From an uncultured bacterium (GTDB taxonomy: Bacteria; Bacillota_I; Bacilli_A; RF39; UBA660): a DNA stretch of 64,000 nucleotides. Made by a program: the position numbers and the translations under genes. Positions within the stretch are counted from its first letter, which is position 1. The number at the start of each line of letters is the position of its first letter. The stretch covers positions 4,194-68,193 of the forward strand of contig CAMERI010000006.1 in the NCBI GenBank assembly GCA_945935525.1. The letters are read 5' to 3'. The notes beneath the pieces were generated by a model, which did no database searches, was not told the DNA's origin, and worked only from the letters and a program-made list of their open reading frames with translations. This document shows, one piece after another, positions 583-57,373 of the stretch.

Positions 583-658
583 GGCTCATTGGTGAAATGG
601 TTAACACATCGCCCTCTCAAGGCGACATTCATGGGTTCAAATCCCATATGAGTCACCA
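583..658 (+). tRNA. tRNA-Glu (anticodon CUC), CCA encoded
   Basis: Hand-folded cloverleaf. 7-bp acceptor stem (GGCTCAT/ATGAGTC with one G-U). U8, A14, GG in the D-loop, a 3-bp D-stem (typical of tRNA-Glu). Anticodon stem TCGCC/GGCGA with loop CTCTCAA (U33, anticodon CTC, A37). TTCAAAT T-loop with stem ATGGG/CCCAT. Discriminator A plus CCA. Confidence 0.6.
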
Positions 659-35008: not shown

Positions 35009-37267
35009 TTAATGTTTCATAGTCAGTCTTTTATTTAAAACATTAACTGATATATAAATAATAGGGACAACTAATAATAGTGAACCTATTATTAACAAAA
35101 TTAACATACCACTACTTCCAGTAGCTGGTAACTCATACCCAGAAACATTAGTAAATTTTATTTCCATACTATCTTTCAAAGTATAAGATTCTTGCTTTTC
35201 AGCATCATATATTTTTATCACTCCACCATTAACTTGATATTTAACAATGAAGCCATTTGTATCTAATTCTTTAACTACATAAGTAATACCATATGGTAAA
35301 TCTTTAATAGTTATTTGTTCTTTATCTTTTAATTTAATAGTTGCTTTTCCATTACTAAAAGTAACATTTTCAGTTGATTCTTTATTATTAATCTTTCTTA
35401 TAACAGTATAAGTACCTTCTAAATTACTTCCTTTATATTTAGCTTCTATTTCAAAAGTAAAATTTTGATTAGTATCTACTCCCTCAACAAATTTCTTAAT
35501 TGTTAAGTTTCTCTTTTTATATGTATTTATTACTTGTCCATCTTTCAAAGGACTAGTAGTAAATCCATAACTAACTTCTACATCATTAATATCTTTACTT
35601 ATTTCATGATATTCATCAGTAGATACTTCATGTATTTTATATTTATGACCAGAAGGTATCTTGTCAAAAGTAACTTTTCCATTTGAATCTGATGTACTAG
35701 TCATTTTAAAATCACTGGCCATATGTCTTCTTTCTTTTAAACAAGGACAATCATCTGAATGATATATTTCAAACTTAGTTCCTTTTAGTGGCTTATTTCC
35801 ATAATTAGTTAATTTATCAAACTCAAGTTTACCTAAAAAAGCTTTAACTTCTGGTCTTGGAAATTCTATTGTACCAGTTCTTGAACTCTTACTTGTTTTA
35901 ACTATATAATTTAACGTAGTAACACCATTTGTTTTATATGATGTACCTTCTACAAAATTACTTAATTCATTTTCAATCCTTACTCTATACTTTAATTTAT
36001 AAGTATATGTATTACCATTAACTTCAGGTGTTGAATTCTTTAAATCCCATTTTATCTTTTCATTTGTAGTATCAAAGGATGCAGTATTTGGATAACTATT
36101 AGATTTAGTAACTGAATCACTTAAAACATTATTTTCTCCATACATACCTATAAATTCAATATTTTTAGGTTGATCGCTTGAATTCATAGGATCTTCAGTA
36201 ACCCAAGTAGCCTCAGATAAAATCATAATTTGTTCGAATATTGATTCAAAGGCTTCTGTCATGGCATTAGGATCATTAACATCATAATAATGGCCTGAAC
36301 CTATTTTATTTCTTAACCAATTTTTATATGCATCAGCACTTGAAGCATCACCTATTTCATATGTCGTTGATGACCTATCTACTACAGCATGTGAAGCATT
36401 TGCAGTTTGATCAATATACTTTTGTATTGTTTGTGCTCCGACATCTACTCCAACAGAATATATTCCAATACCACTATTTTTAATAGTAGTGGCCATTTGC
36501 CTTGCTCTTATTGCTGCTTCATCACTATAACTAGTTCCATAAGAACAAGGTTTATTTAATACTCTATCTTCAAATCTATTACCATCATAAGTATCATATC
36601 CAGTATATTCATTTTCAATATATGTTGTTGGAAATCCATCTGACAAGAATAATATATATTTTTTACTTGCAGAAGAACCATCTAACATATCTTTTGCTCT
36701 TTTAAGACCTGCTTCAATATTAGTAAATCGTTTATTATGAGCTTCTGAAACTGTTACGATATTTTCTTTTATTTCAGTTGTAATTTTGTCTTTTAGAGAT
36801 TGTTTGTTGCTTTCATTACAATTTTGTAAATTAAATATTTCATATGAATCTGAATTAAATGCAACAAATCCAAGCTTTCTATCAATACTACTATTTTGAG
36901 AACGAGCCGCAAAACTATCTATAAAACTATTACTTGCTTCTTTTGCAGCATCTAATCTCGTCTTTCCTGCACCTAGTGTTTGAGTCATAGTATTTGAAAT
37001 ATCCATAACTATTACTACTGCTAAATCAGGGTCTACTGCTATATTTTTTGTTTGAACGGTTAAAATAATATCAAAATAATTTTCTAACTCTGATGGGTAA
37101 ATATTTTTACTAACACTTACACCATCTGCTTCATTAATATTACTTCCACCTTCTTTAGTAATTTGCCTTTGATTATTATCATTTGCCTCTGCAAAAATAT
37201 TTATTATTGGATTAATAAACATTAAAAGAGCAAATAATATTGCAAATATTTTATTTATCTTTTTCAT
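35009..37267 (-). CDS. pilus tip adhesin with vWA (MIDAS) domain and CnaB-type domains, LPXTG-anchored
   Basis: 'VMDISNTM' is a MIDAS motif. The CnaB-like segment 'GTKFEIYHSDD...GKVTFDKIPSGHKYKIHEVSTDEYH' and the C-terminal 'LPATGS' sorting signal are present. Start taken at 'MKKINKIF', which has a GGGGGA SD. Confidence 0.75.
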   Translation of the reverse strand: MKKINKIFAILFALLMFINPIINIFAEANDNNQRQITKEGGSNINEADGVSVSKNIYPSELENYFDIILTVQTKNIAVDPDLAVVIVMDISNTMTQTLGAGKTRLDAAKEASNSFIDSFAARSQNSSIDRKLGFVAFNSDSYEIFNLQNCNESNKQSLKDKITTEIKENIVTVSEAHNKRFTNIEAGLKRAKDMLDGSSASKKYILFLSDGFPTTYIENEYTGYDTYDGNRFEDRVLNKPCSYGTSYSDEAAIRARQMATTIKNSGIGIYSVGVDVGAQTIQKYIDQTANASHAVVDRSSTTYEIGDASSADAYKNWLRNKIGSGHYYDVNDPNAMTEAFESIFEQIMILSEATWVTEDPMNSSDQPKNIEFIGMYGENNVLSDSVTKSNSYPNTASFDTTNEKIKWDLKNSTPEVNGNTYTYKLKYRVRIENELSNFVEGTSYKTNGVTTLNYIVKTSKSSRTGTIEFPRPEVKAFLGKLEFDKLTNYGNKPLKGTKFEIYHSDDCPCLKERRHMASDFKMTSTSDSNGKVTFDKIPSGHKYKIHEVSTDEYHEISKDINDVEVSYGFTTSPLKDGQVINTYKKRNLTIKKFVEGVDTNQNFTFEIEAKYKGSNLEGTYTVIRKINNKESTENVTFSNGKATIKLKDKEQITIKDLPYGITYVVKELDTNGFIVKYQVNGGVIKIYDAEKQESYTLKDSMEIKFTNVSGYELPATGSSGMLILLIIGSLLLVVPIIYISVNVLNKRLTMKH

Positions 37268-37296
37268 ACCATATCCCCCATATAAGAAAAATAAAA

Positions 37297-37917
37297 TTAT
37301 ATTTTTTTGATTTTCTTTATTGGCCAAACTTTAAATATAACTTTACCAATTATATTTTCTTTTGTGATTGTACCAATCATTTCACTACGTGAATCAGTTA
37401 ATACATCTCTTTCATCACTTAGTACGAATATACTATTATCACTTACTTGCACTGGATATTTAATATCACTTTCACCCTTTAAAAATTCTTTAACGTAATT
37501 TTCTTCTAATTTTTCTCCATTAACATAAACAATTCCATCTTTATCTATATTAACAAAATCACCTTGTACCCCAATTACTCTTTTCACCAATATTTTATTT
37601 CCATAATAGAATGCAACTACATCACCAGTTTTAAAGCTACTACTTTTAATAGTTAAGACTATATCTCCATCTTCTACTAAAGGTTTCATACTTGAATCAG
37701 TTATCTCTATAACTGGCATAAATAATGTAGCCCCAACTGATGCAACTGCAACTATTATTATTAACACATATATAGTACTTCTAAGTAGTCTAGAAAAACT
37801 ATGCCTATAATTTTCTCTATGTAATTCTTTTTCCAAATTTTCAACAGTTAGATCTTTATATGTAAGTTTCTTTTGTGTCTTTTTTCTTTTTTTTAACATA
37901 TCTCTAAACTTATGCAT
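37297..37917 (-). CDS. sipW: SipW-type (archaeal/ER-like) signal peptidase I
   Basis: 'DSSMKPLVEDGDIV' is the S26 catalytic Ser box. 206 aa. Located at the head of the pilus locus. Confidence 0.7.
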   Translation of the reverse strand: MHKFRDMLKKRKKTQKKLTYKDLTVENLEKELHRENYRHSFSRLLRSTIYVLIIIVAVASVGATLFMPVIEITDSSMKPLVEDGDIVLTIKSSSFKTGDVVAFYYGNKILVKRVIGVQGDFVNIDKDGIVYVNGEKLEENYVKEFLKGESDIKYPVQVSDNSIFVLSDERDVLTDSRSEMIGTITKENIIGKVIFKVWPIKKIKKI

Positions 37918-38599: not shown

Positions 38600-39733
38600 T
38601 TATTGATTATTTTTTAAGTAATCTATAACTTCATTATAAACATCCATTCTAAGTCCTGAAGTTACACTTGTTATTTCTTGAGGAATTCCTTTAATAGTAC
38701 CACTTATCTTACTAACATCATAATTTCCTCCAGTAGTACCTACTCTAAATCCATATCTTTCCCAACTTCTTTGAGCAACTTCTTTATCATTAAATGCTTC
38801 TAATAGTTTCTTACCATTATCATCAAAAGCAGCAATGCAATGACTATTCCATATAGTTGGTGTTGGATATAATATTCTAATCTTATCTTTTACTTGATTC
38901 CATCCATCAGGATTTGCATTAGCAAAATCTATAACACTCTTTTCATAATCAACTATCATAGGTTTAGCACCCATACCAGTTTTTAAGAACATTGAGAACA
39001 AATCAGCAGGTGTATTATTCATATATCCACTCTTTAAATAGAATCCTTTTAATTTAGGAAGTGCTTCGTTAATACTAACAGAGTTAACATCTCCACCTGC
39101 CATAATAGATAGTAATAATCCATAATATGTAGCACCCGGTGAAGAAGTAACTGGGTCAGTAGATCCAATATTTACTTGACCATAAATATTAAGTCCAAGT
39201 TCATTCCATTTTTTACCTTGTAATATATAATTAATTAACTTATTCATATCAGTTATATAATAAACATCATTTTGAACAGTAACAATTTTTTCCTTAATTA
39301 AAGCATCAGTTACTTCTGCCCAACTATATATAACTATAGGTGTATTAAGAACTAAATCTCCAGCAACTACATAATCACGAGCAGCTTCTCCTGTTTTAGG
39401 ACTAGTCTTAAAGTAATCATAATATCTTTGATCAGAGAAGAACGCTAAATCATACTTACTTCCATCTTTACGTACTAAACTCTCTTTAACAGTTTTACCA
39501 TTACTCCAAGAATCTTGTACAAATTTAAATTTATACTTTTTAGCAAATATCTTATTTATTTCTTCATCAGCAAGTAAATCCTCTTTACCACCACCAACAG
39601 CTCCATATATCTCTGTTACTGAATTAGTAAAATCTCCATTCTTAATAAGAACAACTACTACTATAATTACTACTAATAGAACTGCACCTATTATTTTTGA
39701 AATCATACCTTCTTTTTTAAACATTTTTTTCAC
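38600..39733 (-). CDS. membrane-anchored periplasmic-binding-protein-like (PBP/SBP-like) protein
   Basis: N-terminal TM, then a domain that looks paralogous to the N-terminal half of the 40324-41895 protein. Confidence 0.4.
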   Translation of the reverse strand: MKKMFKKEGMISKIIGAVLLVVIIVVVVLIKNGDFTNSVTEIYGAVGGGKEDLLADEEINKIFAKKYKFKFVQDSWSNGKTVKESLVRKDGSKYDLAFFSDQRYYDYFKTSPKTGEAARDYVVAGDLVLNTPIVIYSWAEVTDALIKEKIVTVQNDVYYITDMNKLINYILQGKKWNELGLNIYGQVNIGSTDPVTSSPGATYYGLLLSIMAGGDVNSVSINEALPKLKGFYLKSGYMNNTPADLFSMFLKTGMGAKPMIVDYEKSVIDFANANPDGWNQVKDKIRILYPTPTIWNSHCIAAFDDNGKKLLEAFNDKEVAQRSWERYGFRVGTTGGNYDVSKISGTIKGIPQEITSVTSGLRMDVYNEVIDYLKNNQ

Positions 39734-40322
39734 TTCCTTTTAACTCATCTTCATCAATATCTAAATCAGATGTTCTTTCAAAGACTTTCATCTCAAAATC
39801 TAATTCTTGATCTTTAGATTTAACTATTTCTTCTAATAACCTATCACATTCATGTTCTACTTCTTTAATATACACAGACATCTTAAGTATAAGTTTATTT
39901 TCAACAAATGTTTTTTCTTTTTTACTTTCAGCTTCTATATATTTAGTAACTATTCTAGTTGTAAATGGTAAATAATAATCTAAGAAGTTATATATTTTAG
40001 TGGCATTTCTAGGTTTAGTTTCTAAATGCTTTGTTATCTTTTGTGATACATTTACTATTTTAGCAAGTTTTTCTTTTATAGTTTTATCTTTTATTTTTTC
40101 TTTATAATCATTTAGTTTTGACATTTCGAAGTTATATCTAGCTAGTGCTTCTCTATCATATACTCTTATATCTTGTGATTTAAATAAGAATATACCAGCT
40201 ATATATATAACTACTGTTAGTATTAATGCAATCCATAAATAAAAGTCCATTACCACATATAGTATTATAAATGCTATTCCAGAAGTTATAGCTGACATTA
40301 AATATCTCTTTTGTATATTCAT
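39717..40322 (-). CDS. XpaC-like (5-bromo-4-chloroindolyl phosphate hydrolysis protein family) membrane protein
   Basis: Two N-terminal TMs plus a charged helical C-terminus. About 200 aa, the same architecture as B. subtilis XpaC. Confidence 0.4.
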   Translation of the reverse strand: MNIQKRYLMSAITSGIAFIILYVVMDFYLWIALILTVVIYIAGIFLFKSQDIRVYDREALARYNFEMSKLNDYKEKIKDKTIKEKLAKIVNVSQKITKHLETKPRNATKIYNFLDYYLPFTTRIVTKYIEAESKKEKTFVENKLILKMSVYIKEVEHECDRLLEEIVKSKDQELDFEMKVFERTSDLDIDEDELKGSEKNV

Positions 40323-40323
40323 A

Positions 40324-41895
40324 TTAATTATAACTCCTTACTTCTTTAAATGCTCTTATTAAGCTTGTTCTTCCATCAAATACTTTAGCATTCGTAAGAT
40401 TAGCTATATTAGTAAGTTCTGTTTCATCACTAGCTCCAAACATAATGCTATATATTGGAATTTTTTCATCTAATATTTGATAATAATTAACTAAACTAGT
40501 ATAACTTCCTGTATTAGATAATCCATCTGTCATAAGTATTACTGATTTTGTATAATCATCATTATATTTTTTTAATTCTTTAAGTGCTTCTACTGAACAT
40601 CCATATATATTAGTTCCACCTGTAGGTCTTGCACTACTTATTTTAGTTATTAATTCTGAAGTATCATTTCCTTTAGAATACCATGTACTTCTATTTGAAG
40701 TATCAAAAGGAATAACTATTATATTATCATTCTTTGAAAATTGTAATCTTTCAGTACTAGCTTTTTCACTATCTAATATAAATTCCATAGCATCTTTAAG
40801 TTGTGTAACTCCATTACCTGACATACTACCAGAATAATCTAAACAAAATGCTACAGCAGCAGGTTTTCTAAGTTCAGCTATGTAAAGACCAATTGCTTCA
40901 TTCATAACCTTTTTAGAAGGATATTTAAGAGGTATTAAGTATTTATTAGTATCAATACCATAAGAAGTCTTAAATACATCTTTATCAGCATTAGAATTAG
41001 TTCCACCATACCAAGTTCTCTTACCAAGTTTTTCTAAATCCTTTTGAGTATCTAAACTTAATAAATATGATTGTAATATATTAAACTTATCTAACTTCTC
41101 TTGACCTCTATCAACATAAGCAAATGGACTATCATTAATAGCAACACCATCAGTAGGATATAATAAATATAATGTATCTTTTCCACTACTTTCAAGTTGT
41201 TTATTAATTCTTATCAAAGATGACTCAGTAGCTATAACAGCTTCATAATCATTACTTTTTAAAAACATATCTTCTAAGAATGAAGTACTTCCAGATACTC
41301 TTTCTACTCCACTAAATAGTGATTTTAAATTAGATATTAATGTTTCATCTTTAATCATCTCACTAGTTAATATTTCAGGACTACCAGCAAGTGAATTTAA
41401 GAATCCTAAATAAGCTGTAAGACCAGTATTAGTCTTAGTAACAGAATTCATTACATATTTAAGTTTCTTACTCTTAACAGCATTTAAAATATCACTATTT
41501 TTAATTTCATTATTAACAAAACCTAATTCTTGAGCCTTACTTTTCTTAACACCCATAACTACTGGATTAATACTAATAGATTTTGAATTAGTTACTTTAA
41601 CACCATTAAGCATATATAACCATATTGAATTACTTAACCATACCGCATCATACTTACTACTATCTTCTTCTAAAATATCTAATGCTTCTAAATCATCAGC
41701 ATACTCTATATAAACACTTATGTGTTCTTTATCACCATAACTAATTAATTCATCCATAAAATCCTTATTATCTGGGTTAGATAAAATATAAAAACTTCTC
41801 TTACCACCCTCAGAATATTCATCAAGAACAAAAGTCTTAACACATATAATTGCAAATATCATACCAACTACTACAATTAAAATTTTTTCTTTCAT
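40324..41895 (-). CDS. membrane-anchored protein with an N-terminal PBP-like domain and a C-terminal vWA domain
   Basis: MIDAS 'CLDYSGSMSG' and downstream 'TGGTNIY', 'MTDGLSN'. N-terminal TM. Confidence 0.55.
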   Translation of the reverse strand: MKEKILIVVVGMIFAIICVKTFVLDEYSEGGKRSFYILSNPDNKDFMDELISYGDKEHISVYIEYADDLEALDILEEDSSKYDAVWLSNSIWLYMLNGVKVTNSKSISINPVVMGVKKSKAQELGFVNNEIKNSDILNAVKSKKLKYVMNSVTKTNTGLTAYLGFLNSLAGSPEILTSEMIKDETLISNLKSLFSGVERVSGSTSFLEDMFLKSNDYEAVIATESSLIRINKQLESSGKDTLYLLYPTDGVAINDSPFAYVDRGQEKLDKFNILQSYLLSLDTQKDLEKLGKRTWYGGTNSNADKDVFKTSYGIDTNKYLIPLKYPSKKVMNEAIGLYIAELRKPAAVAFCLDYSGSMSGNGVTQLKDAMEFILDSEKASTERLQFSKNDNIIVIPFDTSNRSTWYSKGNDTSELITKISSARPTGGTNIYGCSVEALKELKKYNDDYTKSVILMTDGLSNTGSYTSLVNYYQILDEKIPIYSIMFGASDETELTNIANLTNAKVFDGRTSLIRAFKEVRSYN

Positions 41896-41951
41896 AAATC
41901 CAACACCTTATCTTCTTAAATTAGTATATCATAATAATTTTTATAAGTAAA

Positions 41952-42158
41952 TTATAGAACCTCTGGTTGTAAAACATTAGTAAAAAAGTTATATTCTATA
42001 TTATATGTTTTAGACCCATCTTTATATTTAAATAACACTCTATAATAATCAGTATCTTTTATATAAGAATATATATTTTTACCAAACTTTCCTTTATATA
42101 CTACTTGATTATATTTACCACAACTTATACCAGTCTTTCCATCCTGTTCTAATAACAT
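41952..42158 (-). CDS. small hypothetical protein (68 aa)
   Basis: ORF only. Confidence 0.2.
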   Translation of the reverse strand: MLLEQDGKTGISCGKYNQVVYKGKFGKNIYSYIKDTDYYRVLFKYKDGSKTYNIEYNFFTNVLQPEVL

Positions 42159-42351
42159 TTTTAATGTTTATTACAAAGTATGTAATAATTTAATACACTT
42201 TCTTCTTAAAATCAGTTACTTCATTATCACAACTATTAACAGATTTATTTTTATAACATTTATATACTTCTAAAGATTTATTTAATTCTTTAAGTGCTTC
42301 TTTTTGTGCTTTCTCATCCATACTCTTCCTACCTTAAATACATTCTACCAT

Positions 42352-42381
42352 AAAAAAAGATTATTGAATATCAATAATCTA
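42352..42381 (-). terminator. rho-independent terminator of ffh (hairpin includes the stop codon)
   Basis: AGATTATTGA-ATA-TCAATAATCT perfect 10-bp stem followed by U7 on the minus strand. Confidence 0.55.
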
Positions 42382-43674: not shown

Positions 43675-43748
43675 AAAATCTATCCTCCTGTATAAATATT
43701 ATAACAAACATTACAATCTTTATAAAGAAAAATGTGCATTTAAGCACA

Positions 43749-45017
43749 CTATTTATTTCTTTTTATAATATCATTTCTATTTTCAATAAGTTTAATAATA
43801 TTATCAATTTCTTCATTACTGCTTTTATCATTAAGTTTACTTATTAATGAACTAATATTATCTTCAATGTCTTTTACTATTTCATTACTAACTGGATCAG
43901 AGTATTTAAGTTTATCAATTAATTTATTTTTATATTCACTATTTAATTTTGATATATTATTAATTTTGAATATCATTTCATCAATAAATTTAGTTTTATT
44001 TTTTGTATTAGTATCTAATTTTTTATTTCTTTTATTAATGAACATTATTGTTACTACTGCTGTAAAATATATTAAATTGCTAAATATTGTATAAGTTTGA
44101 ATACCACTTCCAAAAGTATGGCTATGATTGTTATTATAATTCGCATAGAATGTAATTCCTAAAAATATAAATGTTAAAACATATATAGGAGTGCTTACTG
44201 CTATTTCTTCAGGAGTTCTATCTTTAACAATAAGAATTACAATAGTTGTTAAAACAAATGCTACTACCGCAGAAACTACACAGTTTATATAATTGTTATG
44301 ATTCCATGGAGTAATAAAATTATCAGATATATTATTTATTGTATCAGGCAAATAAACTTCTTTATTATGACTGCCATCAAAACTTACTGATGTTACTTTC
44401 ATGCCATTAACAGTTGTTGGAATAATTAAAGCACCACCATTACCCTTATAATGAGTTAATTCAACATTTCCATCTTTAACATTATATTCAAATGGAAATT
44501 CAATATAATTAAAATCAACAACTTCTGAATCATTTAATATATTAACATTTAATTCATTATTATTTTTAAGTTCTTCGCAATATTTACCTCTATAACAATT
44601 GATAGTAATATTTTTAAAATTCTCTACTGGTAAATAGTTTATGTTATCTGAAATATATATATTTTTAACTTTATCATTTTTAAATGAATCACTTATTGAT
44701 GTTACTTTAACTCCATCATATTCATATGGAATAACTAATGTTTCACTTAATCCTTTATATTCAGTTATTTCTAAAGTATCATTAACTTTATTATATGAAA
44801 AACTTTCTATATTTTTTGTATATTTATCTTTTTCACTATCAGCAATCTTTTCATAATCAATTCCATTCTTTTTTGCATATTCAAGAACATAATCATTATT
44901 GCTAAATTTAATTTTAATATCTCCATAATATTTTTCATTAGTAAGTGAGAATATCAAAGCAAGTGTTATTATAAATGAAATTGCTATAAAAATTATCTTT
45001 TTCTTCATATTACTCAC
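43749..45017 (-). CDS. membrane protein: BspA-type LRR ectodomain, 3 TM, cytoplasmic coiled-coil tail
   Basis: Repeats 'LVIPYEYDGVKVTSISDSF' and 'LIIPTTVNGMKVTSVSFDG' (LRR_5-like). C-terminal K/N/E-rich coiled coil. Overlaps the upstream gene by 8 nt. Confidence 0.5.
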   Translation of the reverse strand: MSNMKKKIIFIAISFIITLALIFSLTNEKYYGDIKIKFSNNDYVLEYAKKNGIDYEKIADSEKDKYTKNIESFSYNKVNDTLEITEYKGLSETLVIPYEYDGVKVTSISDSFKNDKVKNIYISDNINYLPVENFKNITINCYRGKYCEELKNNNELNVNILNDSEVVDFNYIEFPFEYNVKDGNVELTHYKGNGGALIIPTTVNGMKVTSVSFDGSHNKEVYLPDTINNISDNFITPWNHNNYINCVVSAVVAFVLTTIVILIVKDRTPEEIAVSTPIYVLTFIFLGITFYANYNNNHSHTFGSGIQTYTIFSNLIYFTAVVTIMFINKRNKKLDTNTKNKTKFIDEMIFKINNISKLNSEYKNKLIDKLKYSDPVSNEIVKDIEDNISSLISKLNDKSSNEEIDNIIKLIENRNDIIKRNK

Positions 45018-46164
45018 CTACTTTCTTACCACAATATGGACAAAATACTGCATCATTTGGTAACTTTTTGCCACAAATACTACACACACTACCAGTCATA
45101 TTATTACCACATTTAATACAAAATTTAGTACCACTAGCATTTTCATATCCACAATTACTACATATTGTTGAATTATCATTTTTAGTAAAAGCACCAACTA
45201 CATTTTTATTAACTGTATCACTTACTTTTGATGAAACACTGCTCATAACGCCAAGTCCTACTCCCATATTAGTAAATTGACCAACTGCATTATTAGAAGC
45301 CATTTTATCAAGAACGTTATATTGTCTTTCATCTTGATAACTATATCCTTCAGTTTCTCTTTTATGTGCTTTTGCTTCACTATCAATAATTGTACTTTTA
45401 GCCTTAGTTTCTTCATCAATTAATGTTACTTTTTGTCTTAATTGAGCTTCTGCTACTGCGACACTTTGTTTAAAATATAATTCTTTAAATTCAAGATATT
45501 GCTTATCATCTTCAGGTTTCATAACAGTAGTTACAAAGAACTTTTCAAGTTCAATACCAAATTCTTCAAAATCGCTAGAAAGTAGATTTTTAAGTTCTTC
45601 ACTAAACTCATTTAAATGACTATCAATTTCAAATATACTTATTTCATTTTTATTAATAATTTTAGCAATATAAGATTTAACTTTAACAAGTATAAATGAG
45701 CTAAAGAATTCATCAATATTTTCCCCGTCAAAATTATCTTTAATACCAACTAATTTTAATAATAGTTTTCTTGAATCAACTACTTTAAATCTCATTTCTC
45801 CACAAGCACCTATTTGTATAGGAAACTTATATGTAGGTTCTAAAAATTCAATTTTACTACTAGTACCCCACCTTGATGATTTAATAGACTTATCTATAAA
45901 GTATACTTCACAATGAAATGGACTTTTACCACCTGTTGGTAAATTAATTAAATTTCTAAGTAGTGGTATGTTATTTGTTTCAAGGGTATATCTACCTGAA
46001 CCAAATAAATCTAATGCTTTTCCATCCTTATAAAGTATAGCTTCCTGTGATTCATGTACAATTAGTTGACTACTTGTATTAAAATCAGTTTTAGGATACT
46101 TCCATACAATATTTTCATCATCTTTCTCTTTCTTTATTATTTCAAATAAAGCCATAATATTCAC
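45010..46164 (-). CDS. YdjI-like SPFH/Band-7-family protein with two C-terminal zinc ribbons
   Basis: 'FHCEVYFIDKSIKSSRWGTSSKIEF' resembles the YdjI core. C-terminus 'CSNCGYEN...CIKCGNN...CSICGKK...CPYCGKK'. Confidence 0.5.
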   Translation of the reverse strand: MNIMALFEIIKKEKDDENIVWKYPKTDFNTSSQLIVHESQEAILYKDGKALDLFGSGRYTLETNNIPLLRNLINLPTGGKSPFHCEVYFIDKSIKSSRWGTSSKIEFLEPTYKFPIQIGACGEMRFKVVDSRKLLLKLVGIKDNFDGENIDEFFSSFILVKVKSYIAKIINKNEISIFEIDSHLNEFSEELKNLLSSDFEEFGIELEKFFVTTVMKPEDDKQYLEFKELYFKQSVAVAEAQLRQKVTLIDEETKAKSTIIDSEAKAHKRETEGYSYQDERQYNVLDKMASNNAVGQFTNMGVGLGVMSSVSSKVSDTVNKNVVGAFTKNDNSTICSNCGYENASGTKFCIKCGNNMTGSVCSICGKKLPNDAVFCPYCGKKVGE

Positions 46165-46179
46165 CTTTCCTTTTCTATA

Positions 46180-48015
46180 TTATTCCTTCTCTAATACTTC
46201 AACATAATCTTTATTATCAAATTTACCACATATCCAGCCATTAACTTTAAATCCTGTTTCTATATTATACCAGATTTCACATAATCCATCTGAACCATTT
46301 CTACTATCAAGAACATCATATATTTCATCTTTTCTAACAATTCCTTTTTCATAACTATAAACATCATCATCATTTCTTATATTAATATAATCAGCAATTA
46401 CTTTAATTTGATCTATTGATGTATTTCTATCATTTGATTGAGTAGGAAGTGGTGAAGTATTTATAATAACACTAATTATTCCTATTATAAATGTTAATAT
46501 GTAGAAGAATGTATTTAATATTTTTTTATCTTTTGGTATATAGTTTTCAGTAAACTCTTTATTGTTTTTTAATATTTCTTCTTTTTCTTCTTTAGTAACA
46601 ATAAGTGGTACTTCTTTAATTTCCCAAGAAGGCTTCATAAGTAATAGTGCAATATTAAGTAAAATTATAATATATGTAATAAATGTAGCTGCATTACCAA
46701 AGTTATGAAGTTTTAAAATAAATAATAATTCTAAAAACACATTAACTATATACATATATTTAGATATTTTATTTGATTTTCTACTAGCAAATCCTAGAAA
46801 AAATGCAATCGCAGTAATTATACCAACTAAGAATTGATATGAAAAAAAATTTTTATCTTCACTAGCTATACCAAAAGTTTCTCCTAAATAATTATAATAG
46901 CCACGGCCGCACAAACATATCATATATACAGCCATCATAGCAGATAACACAAATGTAATTACGATATATGAAGTTGAACACTTATTTCTTTTTTCTATAA
47001 CATCATATCTTTTAGATAATTCTTCTTGTTTTTCTCTTTCCTCTTCAAGCATCATTTGTTTGAATTTCTGATACATATCACTATCTATATCAGTAGATTT
47101 TTTATTAATGATTTTTCCTACTGCTGTAATTAAATCTTGCATAGAACCAACTTTATCTATGCATAGTGCTTGTAACATTGAAAACTCTTCTGGTAATTCA
47201 TAAGCATCCATCTTACTATAAACTGGAATCAATACTTTTTTCTTTTTATTTTTTATTAAGTCTAAGTATCTACTCCATTCATTTTTAACCCATACTGAAT
47301 TTAAATTATCAGCATTAGTGCCTACTACTAACATAATTTTTGAACTATTAAGTGCTGAAAAGATATATGGTTCATATTCTTCACCAAGTTTATCAGCAAG
47401 AGTAATTCTAGCAAAGAAAACTTTATAATTTAAATCAGTTAATTTATTATATATATCCTGAGCAATAACACTATCGGGAGTTCTATCTCCATTTTTATCT
47501 CCTTCTTTATAACAAATAAAGATATCATAATCTTCTTCATTATTAGAAATTTCAAGTGCTTTCTTTTGAATATTACTAATAGTTTTTGCTTCTTCTTTAT
47601 ATATTTTTAAAGCATCTCCATAGGCTTTGCTAATTATTATTTTATAATCAGGATCAGTTAAAACAGATTCATACTTTGTTCTATGACAAGTAATCATTTT
47701 CTTTTTAGTTTTTGGATCATCTACATATTCAACACCATATCTACAAAGTATTAGTCCCCAATGAGCTTCTAACTGATTTTCATCTATTTCAAGTATAGTT
47801 TCATATACACCATATGCTTTATCAAATTCATTTGATAGTCTTAAATTATTAGCCCTATTATATAAATTTAAAAGTTTTTCATTATCAACACTTGGTAGAG
47901 TCATAGTGCTTTTACAATATAAACATTTACCTATATTACTACCTTCAACTACTTCTATATCTCCACCACACATCTTACATTTAAAAACCATTGTTACTGC
48001 CTCCATGCTAAACAT
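46180..48015 (-). CDS. Zn-ribbon / TPR-like / TIR-domain / 4-TM / SH3b-like protein
   Basis: N-terminal 'CKMCGG...CLYCK'. TIR blocks 'YDIFICYKEGD', 'LTDLNYKVFFAR', 'IFSALNSSKIMLVVGT' and 'SVWVKNEWSRY'. Four hydrophobic helices. The C-terminal 'IWYNIETGFKVNGWICGKF' is SH3b-like. Confidence 0.6.
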   Translation of the reverse strand: MFSMEAVTMVFKCKMCGGDIEVVEGSNIGKCLYCKSTMTLPSVDNEKLLNLYNRANNLRLSNEFDKAYGVYETILEIDENQLEAHWGLILCRYGVEYVDDPKTKKKMITCHRTKYESVLTDPDYKIIISKAYGDALKIYKEEAKTISNIQKKALEISNNEEDYDIFICYKEGDKNGDRTPDSVIAQDIYNKLTDLNYKVFFARITLADKLGEEYEPYIFSALNSSKIMLVVGTNADNLNSVWVKNEWSRYLDLIKNKKKKVLIPVYSKMDAYELPEEFSMLQALCIDKVGSMQDLITAVGKIINKKSTDIDSDMYQKFKQMMLEEEREKQEELSKRYDVIEKRNKCSTSYIVITFVLSAMMAVYMICLCGRGYYNYLGETFGIASEDKNFFSYQFLVGIITAIAFFLGFASRKSNKISKYMYIVNVFLELLFILKLHNFGNAATFITYIIILLNIALLLMKPSWEIKEVPLIVTKEEKEEILKNNKEFTENYIPKDKKILNTFFYILTFIIGIISVIINTSPLPTQSNDRNTSIDQIKVIADYINIRNDDDVYSYEKGIVRKDEIYDVLDSRNGSDGLCEIWYNIETGFKVNGWICGKFDNKDYVEVLEKE

Positions 48016-48165
48016 ATTTTATCATAGATATATTTATACTTCAATTATAACCAAATAAATTTAGAAATAAAATATTTTTACATTAAAAAGAAAATAAAAT
48101 ACTTTTAGCTTATTCAGGTAATATCCAAAAATAGATTACAATTTTCATTAATAATTTATCGCATA

Positions 48166-48194
48166 ATAAAAAAGAAAACGCATTAAGCATTTTC
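48166..48194 (-). terminator. possible terminator at the rpoC 3' end
   Basis: Imperfect GAAAA(C/T)GC stem overlapping the stop codon, with a U-rich tail. Weak. Confidence 0.3.
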
Positions 48195-51100
48195 TTCTTC
48201 GTCACTTTCTTTTTCCACTTCAGCCATAGCACCTACAACTTCTTCATTTTTATCATCAGATAAGAATTTTTCTTCTAACACTTCAGCAGCATCATCATCT
48301 AAAAGTTCATTCTTTAAAATAACTTCAATATTATTGTATTGTTTAGCACCTGTACCAGCAGGAATTAATTTACCTAAGATAACGTTTTCTTTAAGTCCAT
48401 GTAACATATCCATCTTACCACGAGTAGCAGCATCTGTTAAGATTCTTGTAGTTTCTTGGAATGATGCAGCTGATAAGAATGAATCAGTTTCTAATGAAGC
48501 TTTAGTTATACCTAACATAATTGGTTTTCCAGTAGCTGGAACTCCACCTGATAGGATAACTGGTTTATTGATTTCAGCGAATTCTCTTAGAGGAACTGTA
48601 AGTCCTTCAATTAAGTTTGTATCTCCTGGATCAACAACTTTAATCTTAGTAATCATTCTTCTAACAACTGTTTCAACGTGTTTATCTGAAACATCAACAC
48701 CTTGACTCTTATAAACTTTTTGAATTTCTTTTAAGATGTATCCTTGTACTGTAGTTGGGTCAGTAACAGCAAGTAATTCTTTTGGAGAAATACTTCCTTC
48801 TGTTAATGGATCTCCAGCATTTACAACGTCACCCTTTTCAACTCTAAGTTTAGCATTGTATTGAGTAACATGTTCACGAGTTTCAACATCGTTAGTAATA
48901 TATATTTTAAATCTATTGTTCTTATCATCAGTAATCTTAGTAATCTTACCACTGATTTCAGCTATAGTAGCTTTAGCTTTAGGAATACGTGCTTCGAAAA
49001 GTTCTTCAACTCTTGGAAGACCTTGAGTGATATCTGCAGCTGATGCAACACCACCTGTATGGAATGTACGCATTGTTAATTGTGTACCTGGCTCACCTAT
49101 AGATTGAGCAGCCATAATACCAGTAGCTTCACCTACTTCTACTAAGTTACCAGTAGCAAGGTTAAGTCCATAACATTTTTGACATACACCATTAGTACAC
49201 TTACAAGTAAGTACACTTCTGATTTCCATTTTAGTAATTCCAGCTTTTTCTATCTTATCAGCAATCTTTTCAGTAATTAAAGCTCCTTTATCAACTAATA
49301 CTTCTTTAGTTTCAGGATTTAATACTTTTTGATTTGAGAAACGACCTGTTATTCTATCTTTAAAGCTTTCAATAACAGCTCCACTCTTTTCATCAGTGAA
49401 TGCTTCAACTTCAATACCTTGAATAGTTCCACAATCTTCTTCACGTACAATTATATCTTGTACTACATCAACTAAACGTCTTGTTAAGTAACCTGCATCT
49501 GCAGTCTTAAGAGCTGTATCGGCAGTTCCTTTTCTAGATCCGTGTGTTGATAAGAAGAATTCTTGAACGTCTAATCCTTCACGGAATGAAGCTAAGATTG
49601 GAATTTCTACTTGACCACCATCTGGTTTAGCCATAATACCACGCATACCAGCAAGTTGTCCTAATTGGTTTGCAGAACCTCTGGCTCCAGAGTTAATAAT
49701 CATAGATAATGGATTTTCTACATCTTGTTTTAGTAATTCACCTAATTTACCTTGAACATTATTTGTAGCATCTGTCCATAATTTAATAACTTTATTATGT
49801 CTTTCTTCATCAGTTATAAGACCACGTTTAAATTGCTTATTGATTTTTTCAATAGTTGCATTAGTTTCAGCTATAATAGTTTCTTTTTCATGGTTAACTG
49901 GTATATCAGAAAGTGAAATTGTTATACCAGATTTAGTACTATATTTAAATCCTAAATCCTTTAATTTATCTAAGAAAATTGATGTTTCAGTAGTTTTATA
50001 TCTCTTAAATATTTGAGCAATTATTTTTCCTAAATCTTTTTTAATTAAAGCAGGAATTAATGGTAATTTAGCAACTTCTTCTGGAAGATTCTTACCTTTT
50101 TCAATAAAGAATTTATCCGGAGTCATAACTTCGATATTTTCTTTACTACCTTCATTAATATAAGGATAAGTATCTGGGAATATTTCATTGAATATTATTT
50201 TACCAGCAGTTGTTACTATATATTTATCTTTTTGCTCATCTGTCCAAACTTTATGTTTAAATTCCTTAGTTGGAATACATACTCTAGTATGAAGAGTAAT
50301 ATCACGTCTTTCATAAGCCATTAATACTTCATTTGGATCTTTATAAGCTTTACCTTCATTAGGTTCACCAGCTAATTCTAATGTTAAATAATAGTTACCT
50401 AATACCATATCTTGAGATGGTGTAACGATTGGTTTTCCATCTTTAGGATCAAGAATGTTATTAGCACCTAACATTAATAATCTTGCTTCAGCTTGTGCTT
50501 CTTCGCTAATAGGAATATGAATAGCCATTTGATCACCATCGAAGTCAGCATTGAATCCACTACAAACTAGTGGGTGTAATCTTAATGCTTTACCACTAAC
50601 AAGAACTGGTTCAAATGCTTGAATAGAAAGTCTATGTAGTGTTGGAGCACGGTTTAATAATACTGGATGTTCACGAATAACATCTTCTACTACATCCCAT
50701 ACTCTTTCATCTTGCACATCTATTATCTTCTTAGCAGCTTTAATATTGTGAGCTATTCCTCTTTCAACTAATTGTTGCATAACATATGGTTTGAATAATT
50801 CAAGAGCCATATCTTTAGGTACACCACATTGATACATTTTAAGACTAGGTCCTACTACGATAACTGAACGACCACTATAGTCAACACGTTTACCTAATAG
50901 GTTTTGTCTAAATCTACCTTGTTTACCTTTTAACATTGATGATAATGACTTAAGTGGTCTATTTCCTACACCAGAAACACTTCTACCACGTCTTCCATTA
51001 TCAATTAAAGCATCTACTGCTTCTTGAAGCATACGTTTTTCATTTTGAACAATGATTGTTGGAGCTTCAAGTTCTAATAATTTTTTAAGACGATTATTTC

Positions 51101-56681: not shown

Positions 56682-57185
56682 TTAATTATTTCCTCCTTCT
56701 TCTAACTTTTCAGCATATAGATTTAATCCAATACTTAAATTTCTTACATGTTCCATTAAACCACCAGCAAACATTGTAAGTAATCCTTCCATACTTGGAA
56801 TAGTTGCATATTCAGCAATAACTTTACTATCAGCAAATTCTGAATCAATATATCCCACTCTAACTTCAAGAGCTGGATGTTCTTTAGCAAACTTACTAAC
56901 AACTTTGATTGGTTCGATAATAGAATCAGCAAAAAGATAAGCATTAGGTCCTTCCATGTAATCATTTAATTTAATATTCTTTTTAGTTAACGCTAAATTC
57001 ATAAGAGTATTTTTATAAATTTTTACATCAGAATTAACTTCTCTTAAACTTCTTCTTAACTCTGCAAATTCACTAACTGTTAAACCTTGATAATTTAATA
57101 ACAAGAATGTTTTAGAATTATCTAATTTTTCAGTTATTTCTTTTACAACAGCTTCTTTTTGTTTAAGTATCTCTTTACTTGCCAT
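56682..57185 (-). CDS. rplJ: 50S ribosomal protein L10
   Basis: L10 family. Start taken at 'MASKEIL', which has the SD AAAGGAGA (the track ORF starts 5 codons earlier, inside the leader). Confidence 0.9.
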
Positions 57186-57373
57186 ATAGTCTCCTTTCAT
57201 AAATTAAAAAGTTTCCTCATGACAAGGAAACTCGTAATAATCGTCATTATTCATTGTTTCCTCGGTAAGATTTACTTCTGTACTTACTGTCTTTGGTCAC
57301 TTCACGAATTTGATTATACAATATTATTTTTAAAATGTAAACCCCTATTTCTAAGATTTTTTAACTTTTATAG
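57186..57373 (-). promoter_or_regulatory. rplJ (L10) leader with attenuator-type hairpin (GTTTCCT-CATGACA-AGGAAAC + U-run) just before the SD
   Basis: A 7-bp perfect stem at 57211-57231 followed by UUUUUAAUUU on the minus strand. Same position as L10 autoregulatory leaders. Confidence 0.45.

Follow-up and report, generated by a model that had tools for sequence, protein, structure and literature searches.

The locus between rpoC and ffh in the window (the whole 64,000-nucleotide stretch of DNA analysed here, from an uncultured bacterium) raises the question of whether three adjacent genes form one system and what the TIR domain encoded by the first of them does. An earlier note, made from the letters of the sequence, had read them as a three-gene operon and a candidate TIR-based envelope-stress or antiphage module. 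All three ORFs were found, tightly packed, on the minus strand (g1, 46180-48015; g2, 45010-46164; g3, 43749-45017), but their likely starts are slightly downstream: ATG 47991 for g1, downstream of GGAGG (603 aa, supported by database protein P0001 of 603 aa and 100% identity), ATG 46155 for g2, and ATG 45008 for g3 (419 aa, the length of database homologues). The gaps then come to 24 nt between g1 and g2 and 1 nt between g2 and g3, and the packing is still tight. The block sits between the following elements.

48163..48205, minus strand: hairpin over the rpoC stop codon (RNA fold dG -16.8 kcal/mol, z -4.26)
48016..48044, minus strand: promoter-like site (TTGAAG, 17-nt spacer, TAAAAT, with TG), 25 nt 5' of the g1 start
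43731..43750, minus strand: terminator-like hairpin and T-run ahead of ffh, directly 3' of the g3 stop (7-bp stem, then TTTCTTTATA)

The hairpin at the rpoC stop, uncalled by a simple terminator scan, was equalled in folding by only 1 of 200 shuffles and is likely a terminator or attenuator parting rpoBC from the module. The promoter-like site is weak evidence only for a g1 promoter, as such matches occur at chance level in the AT-rich DNA here (78 observed, 76.8 expected). Because hairpins lie at the rpoC stop and after g3, g1-g2-g3 looks like its own transcription unit, and the proposed operon stands as an operon-like unit.

The first gene encodes a membrane protein with the following parts.

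46180..47991, minus strand: g1, zinc-ribbon / helical (TPR-like) / TIR / 5-TM / SH3b-like membrane protein, 603 aa (profile, fold matches, AF2)
47899..47991, minus strand: g1 N-terminal zinc ribbon, aa 1-31, CxxC...CxxC (invariant Cys, beta-strand model)
47110..47523, minus strand: g1 TIR domain, aa 157-294 (Pfam TIR_2, E 3.7e-10, above the Pfam cut-off)
46459..46974, minus strand: g1 membrane region with 5 predicted TM helices (hydropathy scan, AF2 helices, positive-inside pattern)
46192..46410, minus strand: SH3b-like beta domain at the g1 C-terminus, aa 528-600, predicted extracellular (Foldseek; SH3_3 on an orthologue)

Profile searches and the AF2 model of g1 (mean pLDDT 82) bore out the zinc ribbon, the TIR domain and the SH3b-like C-terminus that had been proposed. 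The ribbon was modelled as a beta ribbon, and its C5, C8, C23 and C26 were invariant across 67 diverse homologues. The TIR domain matched the TIR folds of MAL, AbTir, RPS4 and SPARTA in Foldseek (TMt 0.6-0.7 for 5uzb, 7uxu and 4c6r), and the Glu of its WxxxE motif (W234/E238, Glu codon at 47278-47280) aligned with the Glu of TcpB/BtpA. Moreover, W234, N237, E238 and W239 were invariant in the g1 family, as were the zinc-ribbon cysteines and the TIR core, and all 67 family representatives scanned had the TIR with its invariant residues. In NADase TIR domains (AbTir, BtpA, SARM1), W and E residues of the WxxxE type form the catalytic signature. For the C-terminus, Foldseek retrieved the cell-wall-binding SH3b domains of 4krt, 4r0k and 9kz1, and orthologue P0123 had a precomputed Pfam SH3_3 match. 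The proposed TPR-like segment is helical and TPR-like, but its TPR match is sub-threshold (E 0.019). Five TM helices were predicted (aa 340-361, 380-402, 404-428, 433-451, 492-511) and not four as claimed, which places the SH3b domain extracellularly; the predicted topology has the N-terminus inside and the C-terminus outside.

The second gene encodes a soluble protein.

45010..46155, minus strand: g2, soluble SPFH (Band_7_1) + coiled-coil/linker + C-terminal double zinc ribbon, 381 aa (Pfam)
about 45490-46107, minus strand: g2 SPFH domain (Band_7_1, E 2e-38)
about 45028-45162, minus strand: g2 DZR (DZR, E 1.7e-10; Zn_Ribbon_1, E 5e-13)

The Band_7_1, DZR and Zn_Ribbon matches all exceed the Pfam cut-offs, and a hydropathy scan of g2 showed no TM segment. 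The description of g2 as a YdjI-like Band-7 protein with a C-terminal double ribbon holds at the level of architecture, and the shared Pfam architecture suggests homology to YdjI.

The third gene encodes a second membrane protein.

43749..45008, minus strand: g3, membrane protein, 419 aa (hydropathy, structure model, fold search)
44349-44915, minus strand: g3 beta-rich, weakly TpLRR-like ectodomain, aa 32-220
43995-44303, minus strand: g3 three TM helices beyond TM1, aa 236-338
43755-43991, minus strand: g3 cytoplasmic helical domain, aa 340-418
43887..43904, minus strand: K-Y-S-D-P-V-S motif in the cytoplasmic part of g3, aa 369-374, the family's signature (family alignment)

The TM total of g3 is four and not three as described earlier (an N-terminal anchor, TM1, plus three, with the ectodomain inserted between), and the LRR assignment of the ectodomain is weak. 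No Pfam or NCBIfam family matched g3, and its cytoplasmic helical domain had no Pfam match. The conserved core of the family, which the earlier note had missed, is a 230-aa 4-TM/YSDPxS protein, with the ectodomain outside the core. The motif has the form YSDP(V/M)S in the family, with D371 invariant and P372 nearly so in 43 members, and S370, D371, P372 and S374 almost invariant in alignment A4.

Searches with g1 gave 6,674 clusters at 50% identity, 3,804 of them with E<1e-30. Nearly all of the matches listed were confined to aa 3-300, with 50-60% identity, in proteins of 420 to 1,643 aa. The g1 family has a conserved N-terminal part of ~300 aa (about 3,800 clusters), 50-60% identical even across bacterial classes, and highly variable C-termini, often in tandem arrays, which had also been missed; the outer domains of paralogues were LRR_5, LRR_8 or DUF6273. 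One third of the representatives had no TM segment, and therefore the label "membrane receptor" is not valid for the whole family.

The three genes co-occur well beyond this genome, as had been proposed. In a set of 80 loci at species level, no neighbour families were conserved other than Band_7_1-DZR (in 52-55) and the g3 family (in 48-51), and the g2 and g3 homologues were adjacent in that order, beside 1-5 tandem TIR paralogues. When 32 TIR-family loci with ample flanks were considered, a g2 homologue was present in 25 and both partners in 22; about one quarter had no scaffold pair nearby, so many TIR paralogues may function on their own or away from the pair. Among the metagenome loci fetched via the g3 family (80), 51/52 had an adjacent g2 homologue and 21/26 the TIR module. 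Independent gene calls with precomputed Pfam gave the same set in order: Band_7_1(+DZR), an unannotated 233-aa protein, and TIR_2(+TPR, DUF6273). TIR-less variant loci retained a protein headed by zinc ribbon and TPR at the same position, which indicates the head as a docking element. No conserved pspA was found nearby across 160 loci, in line with its reported absence from the window, and we found no TIR-SPFH pairing described in the searchable literature or in PADLOC, NCBIfam or Pfam. We could not find the module described, and g1-g2-g3 appears to be one copy of a widespread chromosomal module in gut Firmicutes. The earlier interpretation was thus supported in part: it was right about the operon-like unit and the co-occurrence and largely right about the domains, whereas its antiphage reading gained no direct support and its LRR assignment is weak.

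The order rpoC-module-ffh was identical in four related species genomes. The cytoplasmic parts (zinc ribbon, TIR and SPFH) had 97-100% identity between these species, and the TM and ectodomain parts were more divergent, with g3 at 70-72% in three of the four species and 97% in the closest (L001), and the SH3b of g1 at 84-85%. Among 50,697 phage and 72,556 plasmid records there were no relatives, and the 2.9 million viral contigs of IMG/VR contained just two. Serine recombinases were seen near some related loci, and at a few related loci small HEPN-like ORFs adjoin TIR genes (Rx4H motif in 7/36 module-adjacent small ORFs versus 6/192 background ORFs).

In B. subtilis, the membrane proteins YdjG (with an N-terminal zinc ribbon) and YdjH recruit YdjI (Band-7 and zinc ribbon) (PMC8581546; PMC11237479), and SamI was inferred to restrain the signalling of its membrane partners (bioRxiv 10.64898/2026.02.06.704340). 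The same preprint cites eukaryotic SPFH proteins (flotillins) as modulators of TLR signalling. Our best reading, with a probability of about one half and drawn from the operon anatomy, the domain layout, the conservation and co-occurrence of the families, their housekeeping-like synteny and this analogy, is that g1, g2 and g3 form one membrane-associated, SPFH-scaffolded envelope-surveillance complex with TIR output, kin in logic to YdjGHI/SamGHI. In this complex g2 would be the soluble, oligomeric SPFH scaffold with C-terminal zinc ribbons, and g3 its obligate partner in the membrane, contacting it by the helical YSDP(V/M)S domain in the cytoplasm and presumably an anchor as YdjH/SamH is for YdjI/SamI. 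g1 would be the client receptor, with the SH3b-like domain toward the cell wall and the TIR beneath the membrane, where its zinc-ribbon/TPR-like head may dock on the scaffold. The scaffold would set the packing density of the TIR domains and keep them inactive at rest, comparable to the brake role of SamI. The ectodomains or TM regions of g1 and g3 could sense a disturbed wall or membrane, whether a phage, an agent active on the cell wall or physical damage is the cause, and allow TIR self-association, followed by NAD+ cleavage or an ADP-ribose-derived signal that would slow or stop the cell. Such release of the TIR domains would make the module a device for envelope surveillance or stress signalling whose output is the TIR. 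Against this reading stand the family TIR domain that showed no NADase product in vitro (below), the TIR-family loci with no scaffold pair nearby and the representatives that lack a TM segment.

A role against phages is possible, but a dedicated abortive-infection system, in which the variable C-termini sense phage particles or envelope damage caused by phages, the TIR depletes NAD+ on a platform formed by the SPFH pair, and the infected cell dies or arrests, seems unlikely to us. The invariant catalytic-type WxxxE, the tandem arrays of 2-5 paralogues with variable C-termini, the C-terminal DUF6273 (tied in the literature to phage receptor-binding proteins that are targets of diversity-generating retroelements), the HEPN-like ORFs with their Rx4H enrichment, and the serine recombinases all point that way, as does a weak match of PADLOC PDC-S66 to the TIR of g1 (aa 137-274 in the numbering of the 611-aa ORF, E 9.3e-6). 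However, the PADLOC and NCBIfam defence models gave no significant match for the module (ThcB4, 18 bits against a cut-off of 220), PADLOC matched neither g2 nor g3, and no ThsA-like or other effector gene was conserved nearby in related loci. The fixed rpoC-ffh site with nearly identical cytoplasmic domains, the missing phage and plasmid copies, and the inactivity in vitro of the one family TIR assayed also argue against it, and 50-60% identity across classes would be unusual among defence TIR domains.

It is improbable that the TIR is a non-enzymatic interaction module, as in TLR adaptors, on a structural or assembly platform at the membrane, for instance one organising the machinery of secretion, surface proteins or the cell wall. 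SPFH proteins generally act as scaffolds (bioRxiv 10.64898/2026.02.06.704340), conservation is strong and housekeeping-like, and TIR-less variants with the zinc-ribbon/TPR head occupy the g1 slot, so the platform functions with non-TIR clients. Further, two constructs of the isolated Eubacterium eligens TIR (EUBELI_RS07950/C4Z355) gave no NADase product in vitro (Weagley 2022, Table S2). However, this protein, the sole g1-family TIR assayed in the literature, is off consensus at several otherwise invariant positions. W234/E238 and the surrounding residues, the signature of NADases, are invariant across thousands of clusters, and many TIR NADases are inactive without oligomerisation. A PspA-less copy of the Bacillus YdjGHI/SamGHI operon with an incidental TIR fusion would explain the architecture of g2, the zinc-ribbon opening of g1 and the three-gene layout with two membrane proteins, but is very improbable, since g1 is no homologue of YdjG (it has no NTF2/YpeB-like domain) and g3 none of YdjH (it has no TPM domain), no pspA is conserved nearby in 160 loci, and the TIR recurs too widely to be incidental (67/67 representatives, with invariant residues, and 21/26 g3-fetched loci).

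Compared with known systems, the module resembles PADLOC PDC-S66 in the TIR domain only, at a low score, with g2 and g3 unmatched. With Thoeris, TIR-STING, SPARTA and TIR-NLR it shares a TIR_2-type domain with a catalytic-type Glu and a fold like those of AbTir and SPARTA; unlike them, it has no ThsA, STING, Argonaute or NTPase partner, fails the curated models, is chromosomal, syntenic and highly conserved, and has a membrane-embedded TIR protein paired with an SPFH scaffold. The likeness to Toll-like receptors is one of analogy (a predicted outer ligand-binding domain, SH3b in g1, then TM and a cytoplasmic TIR), homology being seen for the TIR fold only: the domains come in the opposite order, the TIR lying N-terminally in g1, zinc-ribbon and TPR elements and several TM helices are added, and adaptor and kinase partners are absent. 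From pspA-ydjGHI (samGHI) the module differs in having no pspA, in g1 (TIR, TPR-like head and SH3b, whereas YdjG has a second zinc ribbon and an NTF2-like domain), in g3 (a 4-TM/YSDPxS protein, not the TPM-domain protein YdjH), and in a client gene often multiplied in tandem with variable C-termini. Both encode a soluble Band-7/SPFH protein that ends in a zinc ribbon (YdjI/SamI; g2) together with two membrane proteins, one of them headed by a zinc ribbon (YdjG; g1), and what is reported or inferred for YdjI/SamI we propose for g2: recruitment by the membrane partners, which the SPFH protein would in turn restrain.

A functional three-part module very likely exists in the genes g1, g2 and g3, which lie between rpoC and ffh on the minus strand of the window, and in their relatives in other genomes: a zinc-ribbon/TPR-like/TIR membrane protein (g1), an SPFH protein with a double zinc ribbon (g2) and a membrane protein of the four-TM family with a YSDP(V/M)S motif (g3). 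The window has a GC content of about 26%, and its closest relatives are human-gut MAGs labelled 'uncultured Clostridium sp.', 'uncultured Bacilli bacterium' or 'Mycoplasmatota bacterium'. The minus-strand order is the L10 leader, two ORFs that are presumably rplJ and rplL, a methyltransferase gene, rpoB, rpoC, g1-g2-g3 and ffh. The three ORFs claimed after rpoC by the earlier note are all present where it placed them, but their starts probably lie slightly downstream of those proposed, as judged from the ribosome-binding sites (RBSs) and the lengths of database homologues; the packing is still tight, with gaps of 24 nt (g1-g2) and 1 nt (g2-g3) in place of the 15-nt gap and 8-nt overlap first reported.

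46180-47991, minus strand: g1, 603 aa, start from RBS and homologue length
45010-46155, minus strand: g2, 381 aa, start from RBS and homologue length
43749-45008, minus strand: g3, 419 aa, start from RBS and homologue length
57195-57314, minus strand: L10 leader (Rfam), just 5' of ORF 56682-57200 (rplJ by position)
583-655, plus strand: a single tRNA

The L10 leader and the tRNA are ordinary and both confirm the ribosomal-protein/rpoBC setting. A stable hairpin covers the rpoC stop codon (dG -16.8 kcal/mol, z -4.3) and a hairpin with a T-run follows 3' of g3, and from these two hairpins the trio looks like a separate transcription unit; a promoter-like match 5' of g1 was no better than chance in such AT-rich DNA. 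An effect of an alternative genetic code on the ORFs was rejected, the stops being TAA, TAA and TAG and rpoB and rpoC being intact under table 11.

Three overlapping or abutting genes 3' of ffh (38600-41895, minus strand), syntenic in the related loci L001-L003 and L058, may constitute a second membrane-stress-type cluster.

40324-41895, minus strand: VWA-domain protein, first of the cluster downstream of ffh
39717-40322, minus strand: XpaC-like 'Halogen_Hydrol' membrane protein, same cluster
38600-39733, minus strand: 377-aa protein with no Pfam match, same cluster

Between the VWA gene and ffh is a 483-nt gap (41896-42378) with no long ORF and no Rfam family at the gathering threshold. Sortase-type pilus genes lie at 35009-37917 (minus strand), where a type I signal peptidase gene is followed by one for a 772-aa tip-pilin-like protein (VWA_2, GBS104-like Ig, SpaA, DUF7601). 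Although one related MAG is labelled 'Mycoplasmatota', these genes suggest that the organism is Gram-positive and has a wall. Another protein, of 592 aa (57374-59152, minus strand), is unusually long for a pseudopilin; apart from a prepilin-type methylation motif at its N-terminus (N_methyl) it matches nothing in Pfam.

The TIR domain claimed for g1 was confirmed by a TIR_2 match over the Pfam threshold (E 3.7e-10) and by a TIR fold in the AlphaFold2 model (pLDDT 82), in which a zinc ribbon (aa 1-31), TPR-like helices, a beta hairpin and more helices (aa 38-150), the TIR fold (aa 157-294), five TM helices and a C-terminal beta domain (aa 528-600) follow one another. Thus g1 is a membrane protein as proposed, but with five TM helices, not four. 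Foldseek matched the TIR region to the TIR domains of MAL, AbTir, RPS4, MyD88 and SPARTA, and the C-terminal domain to endolysin SH3b cell-wall-binding domains (4krt, 9kz1) and to 4r0k; one g1 orthologue also has a Pfam SH3_3 match. From the five TM helices and the positive-inside pattern, the zinc-ribbon/TIR part is predicted to lie in the cytoplasm and the SH3b domain outside the cell. The nearest solved structure by sequence is the TIR domain of Brucella TcpB/BtpA, where SVWVKNEW of g1 aligns with SKQWPAREL and E238 falls on the catalytic Glu; g1 has the conserved Glu in the alphaC WxxxE context of NADase TIR domains.

The second protein, g2, is soluble and has a Band_7_1 domain (PF13421, E 2e-38) and a C-terminal double zinc ribbon; its proposed resemblance to B. 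subtilis YdjI holds at the level of architecture (Band-7, C-terminal zinc ribbon), the comparison being with the published description of YdjI. In the g3 model (pLDDT 82) a TM anchor at the N-terminus precedes a beta-rich ectodomain, which is followed by three TM helices and a helical domain in the cytoplasm. This agrees with the membrane protein with an ectodomain described earlier, except that there are four TM helices, not three; the LRR call was supported weakly, and g3 belongs to no family in Pfam, NCBIfam, PADLOC or PHROGs. No solved structure is related by sequence to the g2 SPFH domain or to the g3 family, and the S20 matches are generic helical ones. A protein search for the g3 family, limited by word preselection, gave only 89 matches, every one unnamed and without a Pfam domain. 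The Clostridia members are typically proteins of 230 aa that combine four TM helices with a helical domain in the cytoplasm, and this domain in the family is marked by (K/R)YSDP(V/M)S and, at the C-terminus, by an RNxxCKxxK-type tail; in g3 the two read KYSDPVS (aa 369-374) and NRNDIIKRNK, and D371 and R411 are invariant among 43 family members. The ectodomain is inserted between TM1 and TM2 in the clade of the window and in a few Clostridia members.

A search with g1 and one with profile A1 returned almost entirely sequences of >92% identity, and the diversity came from a representative search and a species-level genome scan. Relatives of g1 fall into 6,674 clusters in an exhaustive search of 1.84 billion representative proteins, and 3,804 of these clusters have E<1e-30. 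Full-length matches to g1 are limited to about six representatives; the remaining matches listed cover aa 3-300 only, at 50-60% identity, in proteins of 420-1,643 aa. In 67 diverse family proteins there is no variation in the zinc-ribbon cysteines, the TIR core or W234/N237/E238/W239, and g1, with 46-61% identity to diverse representatives over aa 1-300, has every invariant residue. TPR repeats are found in the C-terminal parts of 46 of these 67 representatives, followed in the family by DUF6273, LRR_5, LRR_8, SH3_3, RCC1 or ankyrin domains, and hydrophobic segments among 150 representatives number one in 57, two or more in 43 and none in 50. The DUF6273 tail occurs in 10/67 representatives and also in the related locus L165 (8739-11327), in which a reverse-transcriptase gene (RVT_1) lies about 2.7 kb from the DUF6273-tailed TIR gene; published papers link DUF6273 to phage receptor-binding proteins hypermutated by diversity-generating retroelements.

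We then compared 80 loci obtained via g1 from species-representative genomes, spanning Oscillospiraceae, Acutalibacteraceae, Ruminococcus, Lachnospiraceae, Christensenellales, Blautia, Solobacterium and uncultured Bacilli, with all ORFs clustered. Three families only are conserved: the TIR family in 76/80 loci (1-5 tandem copies), the Band_7_1-DZR family in 52/80 by clustering and 55/80 by tblastn, and the g3 family in 48-51 of 80. The Band_7_1-DZR gene and the g3-family gene, in that order, nearly always adjoin, with the TIR genes before or after the pair; where flanks were ample (n=32), 25 loci have a g2 homologue and 22 both partners. The reciprocal test, with 80 metagenome loci obtained via the g3 family, gave an adjoining same-strand g2 homologue in 51 of the 52 loci with enough upstream sequence, and the TIR module in 21 of the 26 loci with at least 4 kb on both sides. 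Moreover, independent gene calls with precomputed Pfam annotation list Band_7_1(+DZR), an unannotated 233-aa protein and TIR_2(+TPR, DUF6273) in that order. The trio therefore co-occurs widely outside its source genome, which the earlier note had asked to be checked, and the window trio itself has every part of the module as defined from these 160 loci, namely the TIR head protein, the Band_7_1-DZR/g3 pair and the g3 core.

Among the five TIR-less exceptions, four (L094, L099, L104, L156) have a match to a zinc-ribbon, TPR and coiled-coil protein without TIR 0-0.5 kb after the g3-family gene, and the fifth (L102) matches the head of this protein alone. The full-length form with a long coiled coil is seen in L104 (10718-12103), L092, L094, L098, L099 and L156, head-only matches in L100, L102, L019, L030, L032 and L063, and non-TIR genes with the zinc-ribbon/TPR head occur inside TIR-containing loci too. 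The g2-g3 pairing looks obligate, and proteins headed by the zinc ribbon and TPR, mostly TIR-bearing, often accompany the pair; the element common to these proteins is this head and not the TIR domain.

No fourth conserved gene was found in the related loci, the small ORFs beside the module forming no family, and no PspA, ThsA-like effector, kinase or protease is conserved near them; the rest of the neighbourhood consists of generic genes (ABC transporters, a surface deacetylase, UvrD, serine recombinases). A divergent small HTH_3 (Xre-type) gene, which could be a local regulator, stands just 5' of the Band_7_1 gene in L018, L026, L076 and L165 (6365-6694). HEPN-like small ORFs stand beside TIR genes in L022 (9475-9984), L078 (9450-9953), L024 (4066-4680 and 7198-7779), L043 (9408-9860) and L163 (11857-12288); a pEK499_p136 HEPN match is barely at threshold and those of the other HEPN-like ORFs are below it, and the Rx4H motif is present in 7/36 module-adjacent small ORFs vs 6/192 background ORFs. 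The window has neither an HTH_3 gene beside the module nor a HEPN-like small ORF.

The rpoC-ffh slot holds the module in four related species. A functional meaning of the position beside rpoC was rejected, because the synteny extends only within a genus-level group and L004-L013 hold the module in other contexts. Across the four related species identity is 97-100% in the zinc-ribbon head, TIR and SPFH parts, 83-92% in the TM region of g1 and 84-85% in its SH3b domain, whereas g3 is 70-72% identical in three of them (TM2-4 39-57%) and 97% in the closest, L001. A set of 50,697 phage and 72,556 plasmid records contained no relative of g1, 2.9 million viral contigs contained only two, and neither g1 nor g3 has a PHROG match. 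The pattern is that of a chromosomal function which is conserved, its cytoplasmic core being constrained while the part that faces the envelope evolves faster, and is not what would be expected of a mobile, patchy defence island. Features that recall conflict systems are the tandem arrays of paralogues whose tails are diversified, the DUF6273 tails and the HEPN-like ORFs seen occasionally.

Self-association switches on TIR NADase or signalling activity, and TIR domains in isolation are often inactive unless they oligomerise. We propose, with a probability of about 0.5, that an SPFH platform controls TIR self-association for an envelope-triggered NAD+ or nucleotide output: g3 would tether a g2 oligomer beneath the membrane, the zinc-ribbon/TPR head of g1 would dock onto this platform, which would govern TIR self-association, and envelope disturbance, sensed via the SH3b, LRR-like and TM parts, would free or concentrate the TIR domains, giving NAD+ cleavage or a nucleotide signal. 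The TIR domain may instead have a non-enzymatic role: in isolation, the TIR domain of E. eligens EUBELI_RS07950/C4Z355 gave no NADase product in two in-vitro constructs (Weagley et al. 2022, PMC9092222 supplement), although several positions that are otherwise invariant in the family deviate from the consensus in this protein. Gut-metagenome members of the g1 TIR family are labelled 'Inactive' (PMC9092222, Tables S1/S2) because the nearest assayed domain is that single, divergent one, and the NADase status of the family therefore hangs on one atypical construct.

A broader reading, which we hold only tentatively and consider rather unlikely, is that gut Firmicutes have a widespread, innate-immunity-like repertoire of TIR receptors, with a shared zinc-ribbon/TPR/TIR head, diversified SH3b, LRR, DUF6273, RCC1 or ankyrin tails, and one SPFH cage and four-TM anchor gating TIR/NAD+ signalling. 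The receptors would be transmembrane or soluble sensors, and the SPFH assembly would gate TIR oligomerisation on envelope attack, phage or otherwise. If true, the module would be the functional equivalent, in a prokaryote, of Toll-like receptor signalling organised by flotillins, and would represent a new class of immune or surveillance systems in bacteria.

TIR domains are central to animal, plant and bacterial immunity, and most of the bacterial TIR systems so far described are, to our knowledge, soluble and work with a dedicated effector; SPFH proteins scaffold membranes in all kinds of organisms, and we know of few bacterial clients for them. The TIR-SPFH module, with about 3,800 sequence clusters and often several diversified receptor paralogues in a locus, is carried by major gut clades (Oscillospiraceae, Lachnospiraceae, Ruminococcus, Blautia, uncultured Bacilli); through it a bacterial SPFH scaffold would gain a defined client and output, it would represent a new mode of membrane-based TIR regulation, and it places many 230-aa membrane proteins now called 'hypothetical' in a context. 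Since gnotobiotic mice and children have both yielded TIR products of gut bacteria (PMC9092222), it is of importance whether so abundant a TIR family is enzymatically active.

No description of a TIR-SPFH pairing was found in the literature searched, including a TIR survey and PSP comparative-genomics papers. The earlier proposal of a novel TIR-based envelope-stress or antiphage module thus stands as regards a real, conserved and apparently undescribed module, but its antiphage part gained no support from the search for known TIR-defence partner genes or from the curated models. Only the TIR domain is common to the module and Thoeris or other TIR defence systems: no ThsA-type effector (SIR2, Macro, SLOG/TM) is present in the window operon or conserved in the 80 loci, and the module fails the curated TIR-defence models of PADLOC and NCBIfam, the best Thoeris model on g1 being ThcB4 (18 bits vs a cut-off of 220, with TIR_2 present) and PADLOC PDC-S66 giving a partial match to the TIR region only (23 bits), short of full length. 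The topology of g1 resembles that of Toll-like receptors by analogy only.

Previous studies showed that B. subtilis YdjI/SamI is a soluble SPFH-zinc-ribbon protein recruited by YdjG, which begins with a zinc ribbon, and YdjH (PMC8581546, PMC11237479), and a 2026 preprint concluded indirectly that SamI restrains signalling of its membrane partners (bioRxiv 10.64898/2026.02.06.704340). The YdjI-type Band-7 domain with a C-terminal zinc ribbon is found in g2. The trio differs from YdjGHI in that it has no pspA and is flanked by rpoC and ffh; the absence of pspA reported for the window was borne out, and none is conserved in the related loci. YdjG has two zinc ribbons, an NTF2/YpeB-like domain and a TM segment, whereas g1 has one zinc ribbon, TIR, five TM helices and SH3b, with no NTF2-like domain in its model; YdjH has a TPM domain, whereas g3 and its family have no TPM_phosphatase or other Pfam match. 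The module is therefore not a member of YdjGHI/SamGHI, yet its proposed working is most like the sensor-plus-SPFH-brake arrangement of that system.
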